Shown: in pieces, positions 1 to 8,315 of the stretch | How positions within the stretch are numbered: the stretch's first letter is position 1 | How the letters are laid out: each line of letters opens with the position of its first letter | Assembly: GCA_001800005.1 (NCBI GenBank) | Contig: MGUL01000041.1 | Location: 31,855 to 74,297, forward strand | Direction of reading: 5' to 3' | DNA length: 42,443 bases | Source of the DNA: Elusimicrobia bacterium RBG_16_66_12 | GTDB lineage: Bacteria > Elusimicrobiota > Elusimicrobia > UBA1565 > UBA9628 | Program-made: the position numbers and the translations under genes | The notes under the pieces: generated by a model | Seen by the model: the letters and a program-made list of their open reading frames with translations, nothing else | The model's database searches: none | What the model was told of the DNA's origin: nothing

Positions 1-1797
1 CGCGTCGGCGGCGTCGCGCCGCCGCAGCTCGTCGAGCAGGTCCCGCGCCCGCTCCGCGTCCTTCTTCGTCCAGGCCACGGCCGCGAGGTAATAGAGCTTG
101 CGGACGTAGATGCGGTCCTTGGGGCTCAGGCGCGAAGCTGCCGCGTAGTCGCGCCGCGCCGCGTCCAGGGCTTGCGACGCTGCCGCATCGTCCGGGTAGG
201 AACGCGCGAGCGAGAACGCCGCGAGCAGCGCACGGCCGAGTTCCCCGGACTTGCGGGCGCCTTTGAGGACCCCTTCGAGTCGAGCGCGGTGCTCTTTAGA
301 GGATCGGGCCGTCTCGATCCTCAGTATGCGCGCGGCGGCTACCGCCTGGGTGCTCGCCGCCACGGATTCGAGCCATTCCACGTCGAGCGCGGCCTCCGCG
401 TCGAGGCCGCGGGCCAGGGCCGCGCGGACATCTTCCGTACCGGCGGAGACGATCTCCGCCGAGACGGCCTTGCGGGCCTCGGGGTCGAGCTTCCCGGCGA
501 TGCGCCGCGCCAGGTCGAGAAGGTATTCGTGGTCCGGGGTCTCGTAGCGCAGAAGCATGGCGAGCATGCGGTAGGTCTCCGCCGTATCTCCGGCCATCGC
601 CTGTTTGTCGAGCTGCGCCCGCAACCGCCGGATGTCCTCGCGCCGGCTCACTTCCAGCGAGCGGCGGTGCAGTTCGCGCGCTTCCTGGTCCTCCGGCTTA
701 AGCAAAGCGGCCGAGGCCAGGCTCTCGACGGCCTCTTCATAATGCTGGTCCTTGAACAGCTCCCGGCCGCGCGCGAAGGCCTCGCCGCCGAGCGCCTCGG
801 AGCGCCCCTTGGCGCGGGCGTATTCATCGTCCTGGATCTCCGCCGCCGGCACGGCGGGCGCGCTCGCGGCCTTGAGGAAGCGGTAGGTGAGCGTGAAACG
901 GTGGTTCTTGGCGAGGGGCCGGTCCTCGAGAGCGTAGTCCACTCCGAAGCGGCCGTCGGCGGTCTTGAAGCCCACGCCGACGGCGAAGCCCTCGTCGAGA
1001 CCGAAACGCAAGGTCAGCACATCCTGCAGCGTATAGGAGGCTCCGAGACCCATGCGCAGCTCGGTCTCGCCGACGAGCTTGCTCAGGCCCACGCCCAGCA
1101 TCGCCCGGTCCTTGCGGATCGAACCCGCGGTGAGGGACACGCGCGAGAAGCCGTCGAAGGAGACGCTCACCCCGCCGCGCAGCTCGCGCGGCAGGACCTC
1201 GGGGTCTGAAGCGAGCTTGAGGCGAGGCGTCAGGAGGTTCTTGATGACCGCGCCCGCCGACCACAGGGGCCGTCCCAGCCACCACGCGTCGTCGCTCGAG
1301 GACTCGAAGCGCGCTCCCGCGTCCGCGCCGAAGCCGCGGTCCTTGTGGCCCGCGAGGTTCGAGCTGAGCATGTTGAAGGTCCCCCCCGCCGCCCAATGGT
1401 CGCCGAAATTCCTGGCGAAGCCGGCCATGTATTGGGCCTGAGAGGCCGCGACCTCGTAGCCGGGATCGTCAACGGCGGCGCGCGCCGTGATCTCGCCGCG
1501 GTAGAGCTGGAGAGCGCCCATGCCGAAGGTCCCCATGCGCGAAGGGACGGTCAAGCCGATGAAGTCGTAGCGCGCCCCGTCATAAAGGAACTGGTGCTCG
1601 CCGGTCACCGCCCCGCCCGCGCCGGCCAGGCCCGCCGGGTTCCAGTGGAGCGCGGTCGGATCTTGAATCACGGACACGGCGGCGCGGCCGAGGGCCGCGC
1701 CCTGCGCGCCGGGACTCTGGCTCATGATCGTGGGCGCGGCGTACAGCGGCAAGGCGCCGAGGTAGATCATCAAGAACTTGTAGAGGAGGCTCGTCAT
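1..1797 (-). CDS. Partial CDS (C-terminus lies beyond the left edge): signal peptide plus PorV/PorQ-like outer-membrane beta-barrel region, followed by a helical TPR-like region
   Basis: Absent from the supplied ORF track because it has no stop inside the window. Hand translation of the minus strand from ATG 1797-1795 gives MTSLLYKFLMIYLGALPLYAAPTIMSQSPGAQGAALGRAAVSVIQDPTALHWNPAGLAGAGGAVTGEHQFLYDGARYDFIGL... It stayed open in my hand translation through all 599 codons to nt 1. It is not Arg-rich like the listed shadow ORFs. The start overlaps the upstream stop (TGATG). The ALGRAA...DPTALHWNPAGLA stretch resembles the N-terminal signature I associate with PorV/PorQ-family barrels. The product call is motif-level only. 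Confidence 0.6.
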   Translation of the reverse strand, partial: MTSLLYKFLMIYLGALPLYAAPTIMSQSPGAQGAALGRAAVSVIQDPTALHWNPAGLAGAGGAVTGEHQFLYDGARYDFIGLTVPSRMGTFGMGALQLYRGEITARAAVDDPGYEVAASQAQYMAGFARNFGDHWAAGGTFNMLSSNLAGHKDRGFGADAGARFESSSDDAWWLGRPLWSAGAVIKNLLTPRLKLASDPEVLPRELRGGVSVSFDGFSRVSLTAGSIRKDRAMLGVGLSKLVGETELRMGLGASYTLQDVLTLRFGLDEGFAVGVGFKTADGRFGVDYALEDRPLAKNHRFTLTYRFLKAASAPAVPAAEIQDDEYARAKGRSEALGGEAFARGRELFKDQHYEEAVESLASAALLKPEDQEARELHRRSLEVSRREDIRRLRAQLDKQAMAGDTAETYRMLAMLLRYETPDHEYLLDLARRIAGKLDPEARKAVSAEIVSAGTEDVRAALARGLDAEAALDVEWLESVAASTQAVAAARILRIETARSSKEHRARLEGVLKGARKSGELGRALLAAFSLARSYPDDAAASQALDAARRDYAAASRLSPKDRIYVRKLYYLAAVAWTKKDAERARDLLDELRRRDAADA

Positions 1798-4325
1798 CAT
1801 TTCACCACCAGGAGGAAGAAGATCGCCGTCTCGGAAGGCCCGTCGAAGCGCACGCGGCCGACATAGCTGCCGTTCATGAGGGCGCGGCCGTGCCGGTCGC
1901 GGCCGTCGAAGCGGACCTCGCTGATGCCGGGCGGCACGCGGCCGTAGTCGCGCTCGTCGAGCGTCGTGCCGAACTCGGAGTAGATCGTGAGCACGGCGCG
2001 CTGGTAGCCGGAGGAAGGCGCATTGAAGACGACGTTCGTCCCCCCTCGGGCCGGGTTGAACGGGTTGGGGTAGTTATAGACGCGCGGGAAGCTGTCCGCC
2101 GCGGCCAAGGTGAAGAGCTGCAGCGGCGTCTGGCTGGCCGCCCCATAAGGGTTCTCGGCCGTGACCTTGAAGTAGTAGCTGCGGTAGTAGTCGAGGCCGG
2201 TGAGGCGCAGGCGCACCGTATTCCCGTCCTCCAGCGCCTCGGCCTGGGGTTTGGCCGCCAGGGCCACGACGTGCAGCGCGCTCGCGCCGGCGGCCTGCTC
2301 GACGCGGGCGACGGCCGACAGCTCAAGCGGCGAGCCGCCCAGGTAGGCCGTGTAGGAGATGGGATCGCCCTGCGGGTTCGTCACGCGCTCCCAGGAGACC
2401 TCGACGCCGTCGCGCATGGTCTTGACCGTCGGCGCCGCCATGAAGGGCGCGCTCAGGCGCAGGGGGTCGGGCGGGTCGTTAAGGAAGGTCGCGGTGAAGG
2501 TCCGGGTCCCCGCGTCGGACACGCCGCCCACTCCGTCGACTGCGACGACGCGCCAGTAGAGGGTCGTGCCGTAGCTGAGGTCGAGCGGGTAGGAGGTGAA
2601 CACGCCTTCTTGGACCAACGCCGGGGCGGCGGGATCGGTCGAGAAATAGAGCCGGTAGCTCACCGGGTCCTCATCGGCATCCTCCGATTCGAGCCAGCGG
2701 AGGTCATAGCGGCTCGCGCGCGTCGAGATCGCGCCGGTCGAGAGATAGAGCGGCATAGTGGGCGGCGTGTTGCGAAACAGCGGGGCGTAGCTCTGCTCAG
2801 CGCCGCCGTCCATGAGGCTCTCGGCTTGATAGTCGTCCCGGGCGCGGACCGACCAATAATAGGTCGAACCGAAGGCGAGGCCGGCCACGGTCATGGCGTA
2901 CGCTGTCGTGGTCGCGATCGCGGGCTGGGCCTGATCGTGGCGCCGCCAAGACACTTCGTAGACCGGCACATCGCCGTCCGGGTCCGTCGCCCGGGTCCAG
3001 GAGAGGACCACGGAGGCGTCTCGCGTCACCACGGTACCCGTGCCTTTCAAGACGGTGAACGGTCCGGGCGGGGCATTCGTGAGCCCGAGGACGAAGTTCT
3101 CGACCGAGGAGGCGCGGCTCTGAAGAGGCAGTCCTAGATACGAGTCCCGCGCGGTCACGCGCCAGTAGTAGGTCGTGCCGAAGGCGAGCGGCGCCGTCAC
3201 GAAGTCCGGAGTCTCGGAGGTCCCCATGCTGCGGAGCACGAAGGGCACGGTGCCGAGCTCAAGAGTGTAAAGGAGCGGGTCGCCCTCGTTGTCCGAGGAA
3301 GACTGCCAGCGCAGCCACGCCGCCGAGGAGTGCTGGACCACCAGCCCCAATGGCGCGGACGGCACCGGAGCGGTGGGCGCCTCGTTGAGGACGAGCCGGC
3401 GAAGAGGCGCTCGACCGGCGGAGCTGAGATAAAGGATGCGCCCGTCCCATGCGGAGCCGATCGCGGAATCCGCCGTGGTCGCTGCCTGGAGGCCGCCGTC
3501 CGAAGTGACCTTGACCACGCTCTGGGGGCAGCCGCCGGGGCCGCAAACCTGCTGGCTCAGATACAGCGAGGAGTCGGCGTCCAGCCACGCTCCTCTCGGG
3601 TTCACAAAACCGCCGAAGCGCGAGGCGGGAGTCTCGCTCTCCAGCGTTCCTGCATCGGAGTAGCGCAGGACCTGCTGGCAGGAAACATCGACCACGACGA
3701 GCTCGCGCTGGACGCCGACCGCGATCTTCGAGGGCGTATAGCAGCTGGTCGGGGTGGCGCTTATGCCGGGCAGTTCGACTTGGCTCAGCAAGCTGCCCGA
3801 GAAATCGTAGGCATTGACGTACCCCTTGATCCCGCTTGCGGGACAGGGACAGCCCAAGCATTGGACGCAGTAGTAGCTCTTCTGATTCTGGAAGCTCAGG
3901 TGGAGACGGGCTCCGATCTTGTCGATGGCTGCCGAGAGCAGGCTCGTCGTGCTGATATAGGGCCCCAAAGAGTACGTGGACCGGCCGAGGAAGTAGCCGG
4001 TATTGAGGAAGCGCTTGAGCGTGATGCCGTCGCCCCCCTCCAGGACATCCACGACGCCCGAGGGCTCCACGGCGAAGGCCAGCGGCGCGCGAACACCCGC
4101 GTCGAAGCTGAACAGCGCTTCGAGACTCGGCGTCCGGAAGGCCGTCACCGAATAGCTCGTCGCTCCAGGGGCCAGCATGAGGGCGTAGAGATTGCCCACC
4201 GAGTCGCGGTCGAGGCCGGCGATGGTGGAGCCGGCCACGCTGAAGGTCGCCTGTTCCACGTACGAGGCCGCGTAAGCGGGCCGCGCCGCGGCGAGCAGCG
4301 CCAGGATCATCAAGGTCGGCTTCAT
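1797..4325 (-). CDS. Secreted multidomain protein: N-terminal beta-propeller-like region, several fibronectin type III-like repeats, and a C-terminal FlgD-Ig / T9SS-type sorting-like domain
   Basis: I trimmed ORF 1797..4472. ATG 4325-4323 is preceded by AGGAGAGGAA (reverse complement of 4331-4340) and opens a signal peptide, MKPTLMILALLAAARPAYA. The upstream 49 codons are Arg-rich and overlap the preceding gene. Repeated FN3-like strand motifs are YYWRVTARD, YYWSVRARD, LYWRVVAVD and YYFKVTAENPYG. The C-terminus reads YNYPNPFNPARGGTNVVF...IYSEFG...RFDGRDRHGRALMNGSYVGRV...FFLLVVK, typical of FlgD-Ig/T9SS C-terminal domains. Confidence 0.85.
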   Translation of the reverse strand: MKPTLMILALLAAARPAYAASYVEQATFSVAGSTIAGLDRDSVGNLYALMLAPGATSYSVTAFRTPSLEALFSFDAGVRAPLAFAVEPSGVVDVLEGGDGITLKRFLNTGYFLGRSTYSLGPYISTTSLLSAAIDKIGARLHLSFQNQKSYYCVQCLGCPCPASGIKGYVNAYDFSGSLLSQVELPGISATPTSCYTPSKIAVGVQRELVVVDVSCQQVLRYSDAGTLESETPASRFGGFVNPRGAWLDADSSLYLSQQVCGPGGCPQSVVKVTSDGGLQAATTADSAIGSAWDGRILYLSSAGRAPLRRLVLNEAPTAPVPSAPLGLVVQHSSAAWLRWQSSSDNEGDPLLYTLELGTVPFVLRSMGTSETPDFVTAPLAFGTTYYWRVTARDSYLGLPLQSRASSVENFVLGLTNAPPGPFTVLKGTGTVVTRDASVVLSWTRATDPDGDVPVYEVSWRRHDQAQPAIATTTAYAMTVAGLAFGSTYYWSVRARDDYQAESLMDGGAEQSYAPLFRNTPPTMPLYLSTGAISTRASRYDLRWLESEDADEDPVSYRLYFSTDPAAPALVQEGVFTSYPLDLSYGTTLYWRVVAVDGVGGVSDAGTRTFTATFLNDPPDPLRLSAPFMAAPTVKTMRDGVEVSWERVTNPQGDPISYTAYLGGSPLELSAVARVEQAAGASALHVVALAAKPQAEALEDGNTVRLRLTGLDYYRSYYFKVTAENPYGAASQTPLQLFTLAAADSFPRVYNYPNPFNPARGGTNVVFNAPSSGYQRAVLTIYSEFGTTLDERDYGRVPPGISEVRFDGRDRHGRALMNGSYVGRVRFDGPSETAIFFLLVVK

Positions 4326-6067
4326 TTCGTTTCCTCTCCTGTAGCGGTCAGCTTCTTCGTGAAGTTCTTGACGGCGGACCGCAGGTCGAGCGGCTCCTCG
4401 CCGACGACCGCCAGCTCCGGCAGGGCGACGTCCTTGATCAGCCCGTGGACGCGAGCCGTGCGGATCAGGCACGTCTCGCGGCCCGGGGCCACCACGAGCG
4501 CCACGCCCGGCGGCAGGCTCTTGATCCTGTTGGGGTGGATCTTGAACTGCTCCACCTCGCGGCGCGACCGATCACCCGTGTGCTCGTCGCCGAGCAGGCC
4601 GCTCTTCACTCGCTCCGTGTCGCTGACGGACGACTCGGTGCCCAAGGTCGCGGCCCAAAACTCCGCGTCCTCCGGGTCCGGCGCGCGGAAGCACACCTTG
4701 CAGCCGGAGGTGTTGTTGAAGACGACGGAGTTGAAGGCGTCCGCGTCCATCCCCTGGATGCGCTTGAGCTGGCCCAAATCCTGGTGCGAGAGAATCGTGC
4801 GCATCTTGGCCGAGCCCACGGTCGCCACGAAGGAGGCGAAGACCGGCGTCGCGAACTCGGCGAACTCATCCATGATCACGGTCGCCGGCTTGGGCTTGAT
4901 CGCGGCGCGCTGACGCGAGGCCGCGACCGACAAGAGCCCCGAGATCACCATGCGGCCGAGCGGGTTGGCGAGGACCTGGAGATGCCCCACGGGGACGGCG
5001 AAATAGACGGCCTGGCCGCGCGCGAACGCCTCCTCCAAGCGGATCTGCGGCGCGTAGCTGTTGAGGAGCGCGCCCAAAGTCCCCGTCGTCCACGGGCGCA
5101 GCGCCGAGGTAAGCGAGCTCGTGTCCTCGTTGGACTTGAACTCCGAGTTGGCCAAGTCGGAGAGCTTGGTGTCCCCGCACAGCTCGAACGCCTTCTTGCG
5201 CGCCTCCTCGAAGGCGAAGTAGTCGTAGCAGTCGCGCAGGGTGAACGCGCGGCCGGTCGCGCAGAAGACCTCGGCCATGCTCTGGATCTTGGCGTAGTCC
5301 ACTCCGCGGTAGTAGTCCTGCCCCTCTCCGGAGGAGGTGGGTTCGCGGCCGATGGCCCGCGCGACCTGGTTGGCGAGCGCCGTCGGGTCCTGCCCCGATA
5401 CGGGACGGATGGGGTTGAAGGTCATCGAGCGCGAGTCTTGGGGATTGAAGTAGCGCACGTCCCCCACCCGCCCGGCGCGGCCCGCCGTCTTGAGGAACTG
5501 GTCGAAGTCTCCGCGGTCGCCCTTGGCTTCCATAAAGAAGACCGGGAAGCCGTCGGCCATGTCCTGGGCCGCGAGCGCGAGCAGGAGCTGAGACTTGCCC
5601 GAGCGGGTAGGCCCCACGATCTGCATGTGCCCCTCGCGCTCGACCGGCAGGACGGACACGGCCCGGCCGGTCCGCGTGACGCCGAGGAAGGTCCCGGCCG
5701 CGGGCGTACGGTCCTTCAGCGCGCTCGCGAGCTTCTTGTCCACGGTCTTTCCATCCTCCGGGATATCCCGCTCTGCGGGGGATTTCCCAGCTTTGAGGCG
5801 CGCCGCGCCGAACCCCGCGGCCGCGCCGAACAGCACGGAGGACACGCACCACGCCAGGACTACCCGCTCGCGGCGCGGGAAGAACCACGCCGCGAAGTCG
5901 CGGTTTTCACGGGCCAACTGGAAGACCGCCGGCCAGGGCATAAGGATCAGGAACGCCGCGACCGCGAGCCCCGAGAAGGTCCCACCGAGGACCTTATAGT
6001 CGGCCTTCAGCAGGCCGAAGCCGGCCAACAGAAGCGACAGGACGACGAGGAAGGAGAGGACGCTCAT
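4322..6067 (-). CDS. Type IV secretion coupling protein-like ATPase (TraD/VirD4/TraG family, N-terminal membrane anchor)
   Basis: The N-terminal hydrophobic helices begin MSVLSFLVVLSLLLAGFGLL. Walker A is MQIVGPTRSGKSQLLLALA. Walker B region is ATVIMDEFAEFATP, followed by RTILSHQDLGQLKRI, as in the TraG/TraD C-terminal domain. There are ATGA overlaps at both ends (6064-6067 and 4322-4325). Confidence 0.8.
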   Translation of the reverse strand: MSVLSFLVVLSLLLAGFGLLKADYKVLGGTFSGLAVAAFLILMPWPAVFQLARENRDFAAWFFPRRERVVLAWCVSSVLFGAAAGFGAARLKAGKSPAERDIPEDGKTVDKKLASALKDRTPAAGTFLGVTRTGRAVSVLPVEREGHMQIVGPTRSGKSQLLLALAAQDMADGFPVFFMEAKGDRGDFDQFLKTAGRAGRVGDVRYFNPQDSRSMTFNPIRPVSGQDPTALANQVARAIGREPTSSGEGQDYYRGVDYAKIQSMAEVFCATGRAFTLRDCYDYFAFEEARKKAFELCGDTKLSDLANSEFKSNEDTSSLTSALRPWTTGTLGALLNSYAPQIRLEEAFARGQAVYFAVPVGHLQVLANPLGRMVISGLLSVAASRQRAAIKPKPATVIMDEFAEFATPVFASFVATVGSAKMRTILSHQDLGQLKRIQGMDADAFNSVVFNNTSGCKVCFRAPDPEDAEFWAATLGTESSVSDTERVKSGLLGDEHTGDRSRREVEQFKIHPNRIKSLPPGVALVVAPGRETCLIRTARVHGLIKDVALPELAVVGEEPLDLRSAVKNFTKKLTATGEETK

Positions 6068-6891
6068 CGCGCGGCCAACGCCTCCCGCGCGCCGCGCGGC
6101 GCCAGGATGATCGGACCGTCCTCGACCGTCGCGCTCTCAAAGGGAGCGCGCCCCGCGCTGCCGCGGAAATCCGCCAAGGAACAGGCGTAGATGAACGGCG
6201 CACGGAAGGTCTGGGCGTGCGTCAGGATGCAGCGCACGCCCGAGGGCCAAGCCGTCAGATAGAGGACCGCGCCGCCGTCCGGCATCCTGCGCCGGTAGGC
6301 CTCGAAGATCTCCTCGTAGCGCTTCTCGGACTTCTGGTGCATCTCTACCTCGATCGCCTTCGGCTGGACGTGGTCCACGATCCAGAGGTCCGAGATGCCT
6401 CGCTCCGGCGAGGGACCGCGGCCGCCGCGGCTGCTCCACTGGAAGCGCTCGCGCTCGGTGCGGACCGTCAGATTCAGCAGCTCCGTCATGACGAGCCCCG
6501 TTGCGGCGACGGTCAGCTCATGGTCCACCAGCGACTCCTCGATGGAGTCCCGATAGCCCGGCATCCGGGCCAAGCCCCGTCTCTTGAGGAGCGCGTGGCC
6601 CTTCTCCGCGAGCGTGAACAGCTTGTGGTGGTTGATGAAGAAGTGTCCTCGAATGAGCCCCGCGGCCTCCAGCTTGCACAGCCTCTTGAAGAGTCGAGAG
6701 ATGTAGACTTCGCGGCCCGTCGCGTTGAAAAAGAGCCGGGTCCTCTCCTCGTCCGAGACCGTCCCGGCCGCGAGCCCATGCAGCTGTCCCATGCCGAGGA
6801 CGCCCCATGTCTCCAGCGCCCCCAAGACCCTCAGGTCCCTCGGCGTCAGTGGAATTTCCTTCGATTTGCCGTCCGCGTTCTGTCCGTTCAT
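6064..6891 (-). CDS. Replication-relaxation (Replic_Relax) family-like protein with an N-terminal winged HTH
   Basis: The N-terminus LTPRDLRVLGALETWGVLGMGQLHGL...RLFKRLCKLEAAGLIRG...FTLAEKGHALL has the wHTH pattern of replication-relaxation proteins. It is followed by VDHELTVAATGLVM. The start is ATG at 6891-6889. The gene sits directly upstream of, and is ATGA-coupled to, a T4CP-like gene, which is the usual partner of this family. Confidence 0.6.
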   Translation of the reverse strand: MNGQNADGKSKEIPLTPRDLRVLGALETWGVLGMGQLHGLAAGTVSDEERTRLFFNATGREVYISRLFKRLCKLEAAGLIRGHFFINHHKLFTLAEKGHALLKRRGLARMPGYRDSIEESLVDHELTVAATGLVMTELLNLTVRTERERFQWSSRGGRGPSPERGISDLWIVDHVQPKAIEVEMHQKSEKRYEEIFEAYRRRMPDGGAVLYLTAWPSGVRCILTHAQTFRAPFIYACSLADFRGSAGRAPFESATVEDGPIILAPRGAREALAAR

Positions 6892-7058
6892 CTGTTTCTT
6901 TGCCTTCAGTTTTCCCGTTCCTTGTGTTCAGTTCTTTCCGTCTTTTCCCTTCTGTTTTTCCGTTCCGTTCTCTTTTGTTTTTTCGTTTCTGTTGTTGTTG
7001 CTGTTTTCTTTTTTTCTTACTTTCACTCACCTCAGTTTTTGCTATCTCTGCCTGCCAT
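6892..7058. repeat. Strand-asymmetric, A-poor, T/C-rich low-complexity tract (purine-rich on the coding minus strand) containing two imperfect 20-bp direct repeats
   Basis: By eye the plus strand carries only a handful of A residues across ~165 nt and is far more A+T-rich than the surrounding DNA. The direct repeats are gccttcagttttcccgttcc (6902-6921) and cccttctgtttttccgttcc (6947-6966), matching at 17 of 20 positions and 45 bp apart. The tract lies immediately upstream of the replication-relaxation gene start (6891). Confidence 0.75.
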
Positions 7059-7111
7059 CCTCCCGACCACTCAATCTCAACCCTTATGGTTGGGAGTGAG
7101 TGGTCGGGAGG
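7059..7111. repeat. 53-nt near-perfect hairpin / inverted repeat (oriT- or operator-like)
   Basis: The outer arms cctcccgaccactca (7059-7073) and tgagtggtcgggagg (7097-7111) are perfect 15-nt reverse complements. The inner arms tctcaacc (7075-7082) and ggttggga (7088-7095) pair with one wobble around a 5-nt loop. Confidence 0.85.
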
Positions 7112-7114
7112 CGA

Positions 7115-7229
7115 AATCGGCGCAGCCGATTGAGAGGCAGGCGCTTTCTCCTGCAAAAACCGTCCGATTTCGGCACACCACTTCACGACACCCCTGTCTG
7201 CTACGGCAGACACCCGAGCAGACACCCGG
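7115..7229. repeat. Cluster of small palindromes and a tandem 12-mer
   Basis: aatcggc-gca-gccgatt lies at 7115-7131 and tgtctgc-tacg-gcagaca at 7195-7212. A tandem direct repeat reads gcagacacccga / gcagacacccgg (7206-7217 and 7218-7229). All sit between the RHH gene stop (7235) and the long hairpin. Confidence 0.7.
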
Positions 7230-7234
7230 TTCGA

Positions 7235-7453
7235 TTATTCTCCGGCGCTGAGGCTCTTGGCGTAGTGCTGGATCGCCTCCGAGATCAGCCGGTCGCGAGG
7301 CACGTCCTCGCCCGTCTGTCGCATCCGTTTCATGCCCGCCTTGGCGAGGTTATCGTGGTCCGCCACCGGCAGGTTCACCGTGATCGCCACCGTCTTCGGC
7401 GGCCGTCCGCCGCGCGCGACCGCTCCGGCTTCCGTGGGCTCGTCCATGCTCAT
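7235..7453 (-). CDS. Small ribbon-helix-helix (CopG/MetJ-like) DNA-binding protein
   Basis: I trimmed ORF 7235..7486 to ATG 7453-7451, which is preceded by AGGAGAT. The sequence RPPKTVAITVNLPVADHDNLAKAGMKR fits the beta-strand-helix pattern of RHH proteins. Its position next to the hairpin cluster fits an accessory or repressor role. Confidence 0.55.
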   Translation of the reverse strand: MSMDEPTEAGAVARGGRPPKTVAITVNLPVADHDNLAKAGMKRMRQTGEDVPRDRLISEAIQHYAKSLSAGE

Positions 7454-7586
7454 ATCTCCTTGCTCGCTCTCGATCTCAACGGCCAAACATGCGGGGCAGG
7501 TGGGGAAGCTTGCTCCCCCGTTTGGTTCGGACTGGCTACCCGACTGCCCGCAAATCGACCCGGCACTTACCTATCCCACGAGCCGG

Positions 7587-8315
7587 TCAATTCCGCACAT
7601 TTCCAGACAGCTGCGCGGCCCAATCCCGCCGCTTGATGTAGCGCCAGCGCGGGTCCTCTTTGGCCGCCGCCACCAGCCGCCGACGGGTAGTTTCTTCCTC
7701 GCGGGCGATCAGGAGTTCGAGCGGGTCCTGGTCTTCGAGCCGATGGGAGATGGGCTCGAACGACGGAGCTTCCCCTTCGCCGCCTTCCATGTCCGTGCTT
7801 CCGAAGGTCGGCGTAAAGGCCTCGTCCAACGGCACGCACTTGCCTTGCCGGTAGGACCGCCGGGCCAGATAGTTGCGGCCGTTGGCGACCAAAGCGGCGA
7901 AGAAGCCCGCGAGGGTAATGCTCCCCTCAAGGAGCTCCCGGTAAGTGTCGGAGGCGACGATCTCGGCCGCCGCGGAGTCGCCGGTGATGACCCGCGAGAA
8001 TCGCACGATCTCGCGGTGCTTGGCCTTGTAGAAAGCCTCGGCTTCCTGGTAGCGGCGCAGGCGATCCTGTCGCGCCTGGCGGACGACCCGGGCCAGGAAC
8101 TTCGGGGCATGCTCCTCCCAGTGGTTCAGCCCGCGGAACTCGCGCGCCAGCTTCTCGACCCGCTGCTGCGAGAGCAGCTCATGGACGACCTTTTCCGGAT
8201 CGAGGCTGGGTTTGAGGCGGACCCGGAGCGTCGCGGCGCGGTGGGCGAGCTCGACGTCCCGGCCGATTGAATCAACGGCGGAGGCAACGGCGACGGCATT
8301 GTGCGTGTGGGCCAT
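7587..8315 (-). CDS. Hypothetical protein (242 aa), no confident domain
   Basis: ATG at 8315-8313 has GAAGGGA upstream. The composition is protein-like (helical, charged). The opposite-strand ORF 7332..8270 is Arg/Gly/Pro-rich and looks spurious. Confidence 0.55.
   Translation of the reverse strand: MAHTHNAVAVASAVDSIGRDVELAHRAATLRVRLKPSLDPEKVVHELLSQQRVEKLAREFRGLNHWEEHAPKFLARVVRQARQDRLRRYQEAEAFYKAKHREIVRFSRVITGDSAAAEIVASDTYRELLEGSITLAGFFAALVANGRNYLARRSYRQGKCVPLDEAFTPTFGSTDMEGGEGEAPSFEPISHRLEDQDPLELLIAREEETTRRRLVAAAKEDPRWRYIKRRDWAAQLSGNVRN

Follow-up and report, generated by a model that had tools for sequence, protein, structure and literature searches.

MOBC is the least understood class of relaxases, with a restriction-enzyme fold, no covalent DNA intermediate seen, and a binding site far from the nick site (nic). 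To our knowledge, only a handful of MOBC origins of transfer (oriT) have been mapped, mostly on Enterococcus plasmids. The plasmid CloDF13 has its own coupling protein, MobB. Its MOBC relaxase, MobC, is restriction-enzyme-like and is encoded beside that coupling protein (PMC12857230). The Pfam family Replic_Relax (PF13814) represents the MOBC class (PMC5357655). The prototype is TraX of pAD1, which combines an N-terminal winged helix with a restriction-enzyme-like active site and binds five direct repeats located 70–120 bp from nic, and a covalent TraX intermediate with DNA has not been seen (PMC12857230). The pAD1-type repeat is reported to hold nic and is a DNA site, an oriT (PMC12857230). 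Here we describe a 343-nt gap between two genes in a 42,443-nt stretch of DNA (the window) from Elusimicrobia bacterium RBG_16_66_12, an uncultured metagenome-assembled genome (MAG) with a 3.56-Mb assembly; the contig continues to the left of the window. We put the probability that this gap is the oriT of an integrative conjugative element, of the MOBC (pAD1 oriT2) kind, at about 0.8. New in this locus are its three-way junction, a swap of specificity that occurred in nature, and the recurrence of the core and its purine-rich flank across phyla.

The gap contains a conserved three-way junction

The gap was folded as single-stranded DNA (ssDNA). On the gene strand, positions 7028–7167 reached −43.0 kcal/mol (z −7.9); the value for the plus strand was −45.2 kcal/mol (z −9.3). 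No fold this stable turned up among 200 shuffles, and the same three-way junction forms on both strands. Stem P1a pairs 7153–7162 with 7033–7042, and stem P1b pairs 7136–7142 with 7050–7056. P2 is a palindrome with a 7-bp stem at 7115–7131. P3 is a 53-nt hairpin at 7059–7111; its 24-nt arms (7059–7082 and 7088–7111) are 92% complementary, and their outer 15 bp (7059–7073 and 7097–7111) are perfectly paired. An earlier note on this DNA had located the 53-nt hairpin, the palindromes at 7115–7131 and 7195–7212, and a tandem repeat at 7206–7229, all of which are where it placed them. It overlooked the long-range stems P1a and P1b that join P2 and P3 into one junction.

A covariance model was built from the seed (Elusimicrobiota) copies. 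All 19 of these fold into the junction, with compensatory changes in 19 of the 30 pairs (RNAalifold). In a search of 401 Elusimicrobiota genomes, the model detected 77 copies, spread over 35 genomes, and 46 copies lie 10–273 nt upstream of a relaxase homologue on the same strand. The element precedes 46 of the 53 relaxase homologues, and most of the others are contig ends, fragments or distant homologues. Over 47 aligned copies, 95.0% of the cells are paired compared to 35–48% when the partners were slid. Two-sided changes occur in 25 of the 33 pairs, the cells changed on two sides outnumber those changed on one side by 301 to 21, and the covariation score is 0.53 versus 0.07–0.10 in the slid controls. 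The earlier note had proposed comparing the regions upstream of homologues; the structure is conserved there with compensatory changes.

The 5′ arm of P3 is the most conserved sequence of the element. Its consensus is CYTCCYRACC..C.C.C.CWAC, and it includes CAAC at 7089–7092. This CAAC is a candidate nick region, by analogy with TraX and the 70–120 bp reported between its repeats and nic (PMC12857230).

All relevant genes are on the minus strand, in the order RHH-like (ribbon-helix-helix-like) gene, 343-nt gap, relaxase-like gene and coupling-protein gene. The features of the locus are as follows.

7235–7453, minus strand: RHH-like gene, 72 aa, from its open reading frame and sequence; ATG at 7453, AGGAGA at 7455–7460
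7195–7228, minus strand: repeat cassette, two direct copies and one inverted copy, then GGGG
7032–7163, minus strand: structured core (three-way junction), 117 bits with the covariance model, and ssDNA folding
7088–7111, minus strand: P3 5′ arm, CCTCCCGACCACTCACTCCCAACC, from invariant alignment columns (alignments A2 and A3)
6892–7031, minus strand: purine-rich tract, 140 nt, non-coding, from its composition
6064–6891, minus strand: relaxase-like gene, 275 aa, winged helix and PD-(D/E)xK, alignment of 30
4322–6067, minus strand: type IV coupling protein (VirD4/TraD-like), Pfam TraG-D_C, T4SS-DNA_transf and TrwB_AAD_bind, and NCBIfam TraD models

The adjoining gene encodes a candidate MOBC relaxase

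The 275-aa protein consists of an N-terminal winged helix followed by a PD-(D/E)xK nuclease core. Residues E27, Q36, H124, D168, E181, E183, K187, Y192 and Y211 are invariant in 30 homologues from 29 genomes (alignment A1). The earlier note had placed the gap between an RHH gene and a replication-relaxation gene. That order stands, on the minus strand. The protein has no Pfam match of its own, and the replication-relaxation label holds only through its relatives. When the family members were scanned singly, 7 of 30 matched Replic_Relax in Pfam (PF13814; best E 1.3e-6), and a PadR-type winged helix was matched by 12 of 30. The NCBIfam model for MobC-family replication-relaxation proteins gave an E value of 0.011 with the 275-aa protein itself. 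Its AlphaFold (AF2) model has a predicted local distance difference test score (pLDDT) of 88.4 and a predicted template modeling score (pTM) of 0.87. Fold matches in the PDB are weak (E above 1e-3), and many are to restriction-enzyme-like proteins, including the R.BspD6I small subunit, Can2, PspGI, HincII and Hjc. Database relatives are unnamed proteins in Elusimicrobiota MAGs, and a tblastn search of the PLSDB plasmids with the protein gave no match. Sequence and model together suggest a MOBC-type relaxase that is distantly related to Replic_Relax/MOBC.

The RHH-like gene, for which a TTG at 7486 is an alternative start, is kept upstream of the element in many loci. The AF2 model of its product has an extended segment at residues 21–29 and helices at 30–47 and 53–70, with a mean pLDDT of 79 that rises to about 90 over residues 21–70. 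Pfam had no match to the 72-aa protein, and the fold search returned nothing significant. The 72-aa protein is a candidate relaxosome accessory protein.

The element matches the pTEF1 origin

The plasmid pTEF1 (NC_004669) is pAD1-like. Its gap between the type IV coupling protein-like (T4CP-like) gene and the replication-relaxation (TraX homologue) gene holds five to six CCTAAAGGTATG-type direct repeats and a nested inverted repeat (ssDNA −55.2 kcal/mol, z −12.9), in which an 18-bp stem closes off a long inner hairpin. It also holds an A-rich purine tract that is 80% purine and falls in the top 0.04% of 80-nt windows. The tract adjoins the inverted repeat, and the relaxase start is about 350 nt and a small open reading frame away. 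The Elusimicrobiota-only model matches the pTEF1 inner hairpin on the gene strand with 23.9 bits (E 5.7e-7). The alignment to pTEF1 oriT2 covers UCCYGACC...CNCAAC...GGUCRGGA. This match indicates that the window element is the same kind of site as oriT2.

The two loci agree in several further respects. Each has a winged-helix and PD-(D/E)xK relaxase adjoining a VirD4-like coupling protein, which is the T4CP-like TraW in pAD1/pTEF1. On the gene strand, the origin comes shortly before the relaxase gene in both, and the order is short direct repeats, large nested inverted repeat, and purine-rich low-GC tract. The repeats are about 70–140 bp from the hairpin apex in both, to be compared with the 70–120 bp between the TraX site and nic (PMC12857230). 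The window cassette is about 100–140 bp from the conserved CAAC, which fits the published distance from repeats to nic.

The loci also differ. Two direct and one inverted 11-mer occur here compared to five tandem 12-mers in pAD1, a change in both copy number and arrangement. The pTEF1 hairpin has two tiers, whereas the extra hairpin P2 makes a three-way junction in the window. The tract of the window is the longer one and reaches the start codon. Here the coupling-protein gene follows the relaxase gene; in pTEF1 it is upstream of oriT. The window site also has an RHH-like gene before it, its host is a diderm member of the Elusimicrobiota, the element is integrated, and the window relaxase is too divergent to reach the Pfam Replic_Relax threshold.

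CloDF13 can be likened to this locus by description only, in the pairing of a restriction-enzyme-like MOBC relaxase with an adjacent coupling-protein gene. It is a small mobilisable plasmid, whereas the window element is large and integrated and has its own secretion genes. The pMV158 oriT with its relaxase MobM, like rolling-circle and MOBV origins, has overlapping inverted repeats that are extruded and read as hairpins, with the nick at or near the loop. These origins are served by an HUH nuclease rather than a PD-(D/E)xK nuclease, and they have neither a distant repeat cassette nor long-range closing stems. The earlier note had read the region as an oriT and/or replication origin. The oriT reading is now well supported by the covarying core upstream of the relaxase homologues, the pTEF1 match and the type IV secretion cluster.

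The repeat cassette is replaced together with the relaxase recognition helix

On the gene strand, the cassette consists of direct repeat DR1 (CGGGTGTCTGC, 7228–7218), direct repeat DR2 (7216–7206) and an inverted copy, GCAGACA, at 7201–7195, followed by GGGG. The direct repeats appear on the plus strand as a tandem of GCAGACACCCG at 7206–7216 and 7218–7228. The cassette sits right after the stop codon of the small gene and upstream of the junction. The same direct-direct-inverted layout, with differing sequences, is present in most of the related loci with upstream sequence examined.

Two of these loci, L002 and L003, were compared with the window segment by segment.

Small-gene end, junction and first ~60 nt of the tract: ~97% identity
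Repeat cassette: wholly replaced
Relaxase residues 1–41: 83–88% identity
Relaxase residues 42–93: 50–52% identity
Relaxase residues 94–275: 90–92% identity

The joint replacement of the cassette and residues 42–93 suggests that the relaxase winged helix binds the cassette, as TraX binds its repeats. Particular helices accompany particular repeats in other loci as well. In seven loci, a tryptophan-bearing relaxase helix, YW/HW...KR(L/M), pairs with repeats of CCAAC, or TAAC in one case, although the relaxases there are only about 37–82% identical to the window protein. Helices of the DYKLGV type pair with CCTCGGGC, and EY.GA.YK helices pair with TCTG-core repeats (TTCTGTCG, GTCTG). From these sequence associations, the cassette is probably the specificity site that the relaxase winged helix binds, and the coordinated replacement of cassette and recognition helix hints at how specificity is encoded. 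The RHH-like protein was considered as a reader of the 11-mers. Its predicted strand, KTVAITVNL, is the same in the window, which has GGGTGTCTGC repeats, and in L003, which has CCGCCAAC repeats. The strand does not track the repeat type, and its identity beside unrelated repeats makes the RHH-like protein an unlikely reader of them.

A purine-rich tract separates the junction from the relaxase gene

The segment 6892–7031 is 84% A+G and 3.6% T on the gene strand, with a GC content of 0.39; it is purine-rich and T-poor in this reading because the genes are on the minus strand. The plus strand of 6892–7058 has 8 A, 44 C, 22 G and 93 T in 167 nt (82% pyrimidine, GC 0.40). The A-poor pyrimidine tract described in the earlier note is thus borne out. 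Its surroundings, described there as very G+C-rich, are G+C-rich, and "very" overstates a window GC of 0.59. The tract lies in a stretch (C41:38707-38932, window 6853–7078) that is alone, within the N-free part of the assembly, in reaching 80% purine or pyrimidine over 120 nt.

Two imperfect repeats, 6899–6921 and 6944–6966, are 87% identical with a spacing of 45. The two direct repeats of about 20 bp that the earlier note saw in the tract are therefore present, but they do not rise above chance. Repeated k-mers in the tract were not above those in dinucleotide-preserving shuffles, with 53 versus 62.9 ± 18.8 at k = 6 and 3 versus 12.2 at k = 8. The direct repeats inside the tract are a by-product of its low complexity, and iterons were rejected for the window copy because shuffles give as many repeats. 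Some relatives show slippage-like tract repeats, for example AACGGAAA and CAACAGCAA.

A coding function of the tract was also rejected. There is an in-frame stop codon 36 nt before the relaxase ATG, and the upstream open frames are inconsistent among homologues; in locus L030 a TAG directly precedes the ATG. No sigma-70 promoter was found in 6700–7700. The one terminator-like site in this interval is outside the gap and is no more than chance would give, and the spacing of a sigma-54 promoter, judged by eye, does not fit. With almost no T on the gene strand, the tract lacks start codons and sigma-70-type hexamers, and stop codons are nearly absent from it. On this ground it probably also serves as the transcribed leader of an operon for the relaxase, the coupling protein, an FN3-repeat protein and a PorV-like protein. 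Because the tract is nearly free of stop codons on the gene strand, spurious long open reading frames run through the gap at 6217–7251 (plus strand, 344 aa) and 6518–7225 (minus strand, 235 aa), and gene callers may annotate them.

The purine-rich flank is not confined to this locus. In Elusimicrobiota, purines make up on average 73% of the 60 nt 3′ of the element, with at least 70% in 33 of 45 copies. The same flank in other phyla averages 82% purine with at least 70% in 16 of 17 copies among the matches listed, and its GC content drops too. A purine-rich tract recurs in four phyla, and this conserved flank poses the question of how such origins open and load. Tentatively, and at somewhat less than even odds, the tract is an unwinding or loading flank of the origin. 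The earlier note had proposed an easily melted segment. That idea is plausible and consistent with a tract of 39% GC beside GC-rich inverted repeats and with the recurrence of the flank in other phyla and in pTEF1.

A possible order of events at the origin

The features of the locus can be arranged into a working model. The relaxase winged helix would dock on the cassette at 7195–7228 and set the specificity of the element, as its co-variation with the repeats suggests. The nested inverted repeat at 7032–7163 would leave the duplex under negative supercoiling, or fold in ssDNA, as a three-way junction on either strand. The nuclease domain would then nick the conserved P3 arm, CYTCCYRACC...CWAC, near CAAC; both the nick and its strand are presumed. 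The part played by the tract is the weakest part of the model. Being low in GC and not self-complementary, the tract may melt first under negative supercoiling and lower the barrier to extrusion of the GC-rich junction. AT-rich flanks reportedly ease cruciform extrusion in the ColE1 work of Lilley and colleagues. The melted tract might also offer an unstructured single strand to a helicase or to the neighbouring coupling protein.

Copies occur in other phyla and without a relaxase gene

Genome contigs were scanned with a degenerate DNA pattern, which gives many chance matches, and the matches were re-scored with the covariance model; the counts that follow refer to the matches listed. Full-length matches of 40–60 bits were found in Cryobacterium species, an uncultured actinomycete, Bdellovibrionota, and a Geminicoccaceae MAG (Alphaproteobacteria). 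In these copies the closing stem is long, the inner hairpin has the same core, and an A-rich purine tract comes after each. A protein of 225–250 aa that matches the family profile follows 6 of the 17 other-phyla copies. It has the pattern D...E.E...K..RY, and its E values of 1e-10 to 2.5e-6 come from a very small search space. Cryobacterium algoricola (L125, L129 and L135) and C. breve NZ_CP075584.1 (L144, L156 and L157) have at least three copies of a two-tier element per genome. An A-rich tract comes after each copy, and a gene for a nuclease of 203–245 aa is next in four of the six loci. The two Cryobacterium loci examined, L129 and L157, are small islands with a tyrosine integrase. These culturable relatives would provide a tractable system for experiments.

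The locus and its 47 covarying relatives give a definition of the origin, in sequence and structure, that is valid across phyla. It is possible, if on balance doubtful, that one ancient origin design is common to the MOBC-like relaxases of at least five phyla, namely Bacillota, Actinomycetota, Bdellovibrionota, Pseudomonadota and Elusimicrobiota, and that the nickase resembles a junction resolvase and has branched, extruded DNA as its true substrate. The design would consist, equally speculatively, of a closing stem, a hairpin with YTCCYRACC...CWAC and a purine-rich flank. A further conjecture of the same low standing is that, without a protein pilot, the coupling protein would take hold of the unstructured purine-rich strand as the leading end and thread it first.

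Intact element copies also occur apart from any relaxase gene, and some of them stand in tandem next to an integrase gene. This genome has such orphans at two sites. At G000:C59:16146-16643 (L061 5147-5644), two tandem copies lie between a TPR gene and an integrase-bearing region. At G000:C182:10100-10232 (L062 5101-5233), one copy keeps the RHH-like gene, the repeats and the junction and has neither tract nor relaxase; its similarity ends right after GATAGCA in the outer stem. The repeat cassettes of these orphan copies differ in type from the cassette of the resident relaxase. In uncultured lineages, the origin definition can help to annotate transfer origins and mobilisable islands that lack a relaxase.

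Tandem arrays of two to three copies, 400–600 bp apart, were seen in other Elusimicrobiota genomes, at L063 (G345:C133:3859-5063), L064 (G292:C35) and L065 (G190:C6). A similar short open frame precedes each of two copies in G345. Such arrays could come from the accretion of elements or from recombination between origins.

Alternative explanations of the element

Several points weigh against the oriT reading. The analysis was computational and worked from sequence alone, and the claims on nicking, mobilisation and binding are drawn from sequence and analogy. The comparison with pAD1 combines the pTEF1 sequence with a review description (PMC12857230). The 275-aa protein itself has no Pfam match reaching threshold, and the weakness of its nuclease fold matches (E above 1e-3) counts in the same direction. 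The independent swaps behind the link between repeats and helices are few, and common ancestry is a partial confounder. The spacer is only 17–41 nt in some clades, where the long tract is dispensable, which indicates that tract length is not essential. Thermodynamics with DNA parameters favor the strand opposite to the genes, which is more stable in 40 of 47 copies by a mean of 2.7 kcal/mol (p 2e-6); the cause could be selection or an asymmetry of the parameters. G-T pairs exceed A-C pairs by 24 to 12, or two to one, which makes a mild folding preference of the gene strand, and hence an RNA role, possible. Finally, the element is very probably located in a transcribed leader, which leaves room for a regulatory RNA function alongside that of an origin.

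The last two points bear on whether junction and tract together are a cis-regulatory RNA 5′ leader, in which the junction would bind a protein or act as a stabiliser and the A-rich tract would serve as a ribosome standby site or translation enhancer. In favour of such a leader, the element always points the same way as the gene and lies immediately before it. The tract reaches the start codon without sigma-70-like hexamers, so it is probably transcribed from upstream, and the fold is very stable with RNA parameters at −73 kcal/mol. The frequent G-U pairs and better-folding sense strand expected of an RNA were not found. G-T pairs make up 1.6% of 1515 cells in the 47 copies and A-C pairs, which are wobbles on the opposite strand, make up 0.8%, whereas G-U pairs account for 5.4% of the cells in tRNA stems of the same genome. 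The 301 to 21 excess of two-sided over one-sided changes also argues against an RNA leader. When folded with RNA parameters, only 22 of the 47 copies are more stable on the gene strand (p 0.95), which is no advantage to the sense strand. Rfam contained no matching family and gave merely chance microRNA-like hairpin matches, all far below thresholds. The intact orphan copies have no downstream relaxase gene to regulate, and the pTEF1 tract and repeat are about 350 nt and a small open reading frame away from the relaxase start. The homologous pAD1-type repeat is a DNA site (PMC12857230). The scarcity of wobbles, the lack of a sense-strand advantage, the absence of an Rfam match and the orphan copies favor a DNA element that pairs on both strands, and an RNA leader is an improbable primary function.

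The same nuclease could nick the site primarily as a rolling-circle (double-strand) replication origin, with transfer secondary or absent. The family name, replication-relaxation, points this way, and so do the small Cryobacterium islands, which hold the element, the nuclease and an integrase and in which no coupling or secretion genes were recognised. Some relaxases of integrative elements double as replication initiators, for example ICEBs1 NicK (PMC5357655). Against this, the window gene is translationally coupled to the coupling-protein gene within a type IV secretion cluster, and the homologous pAD1 site is an oriT (PMC12857230). Replication as the primary role is accordingly unlikely in our estimate, and it is compatible with an oriT because both processes begin at the same nick. 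Apart from possible rolling-circle copying driven by the relaxase, nothing specific in the features examined hints at a vegetative replication origin.

The single-strand origins (sso) of rolling-circle plasmids are large folded single-strand structures. A folded element with strict Watson-Crick pairing beside transfer genes could likewise be an sso or priming signal for complementary-strand synthesis in the recipient rather than a nick site. This is very unlikely. Function of an sso is strand-specific, whereas both strands of the element fold equally well; there are no promoter-like boxes in or around it; and its sequence core is common to the pAD1 repeat reported to hold nic (PMC12857230). 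The earlier note had suggested from the purine/pyrimidine strand asymmetry, which is 84% over 140 nt, that an intramolecular triplex (H-DNA) could form. A triplex that drives origin opening was rejected, because pyrimidine runs without interruption reach at most 15 nt, the arms of the best mirror repeat are 10 nt long with 2 mismatches, and the depleted base varies among related tracts, some being T-poor and others C-poor.

Transfer and defence genes surround the oriT candidate

As expected of a MOBC oriT, coupling-protein and mating-channel genes accompany the site. The start of the coupling-protein gene overlaps the stop of the relaxase gene. Just outside the window on the same contig are genes for an 812-aa VirB4/TraC-like ATPase, a TrbI/VirB10-like protein and a tyrosine integrase; matches to VirB6- and VirB8-like proteins on this contig are weak. 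The coupling protein, the secretion genes and the integrase make the locus part of an integrative conjugative element.

The conserved gene string begins with an unknown 242-aa protein and the RHH-like protein, continues after the element with the relaxase-like and coupling proteins, and ends with an FN3-repeat protein and a PorV-like barrel. This string is kept in five further genomes, in some of which the relaxase is only 31–43% identical. The six genes span window 1–8315 and recur in loci L068, L069, L070, L073 and L074, even at 31% relaxase identity. An outer-membrane barrel in the style of the type IX secretion system (PorV/PorQ-like) and a large secreted FN3-repeat cargo are unusual within a conjugation operon.

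The window lies within an integrative conjugative element with defence genes on both flanks, and the site marks a route, probably a conjugative one, for a large island of defence genes in Elusimicrobiota from groundwater. To the left of the window, at G000:C41:12500-32000 (locus L080), the secretion and integrase genes are followed by genes for a Piwi-domain protein (prokaryotic Argonaute), a DpnII-type nuclease and a Schlafen/AlbA_2 protein.

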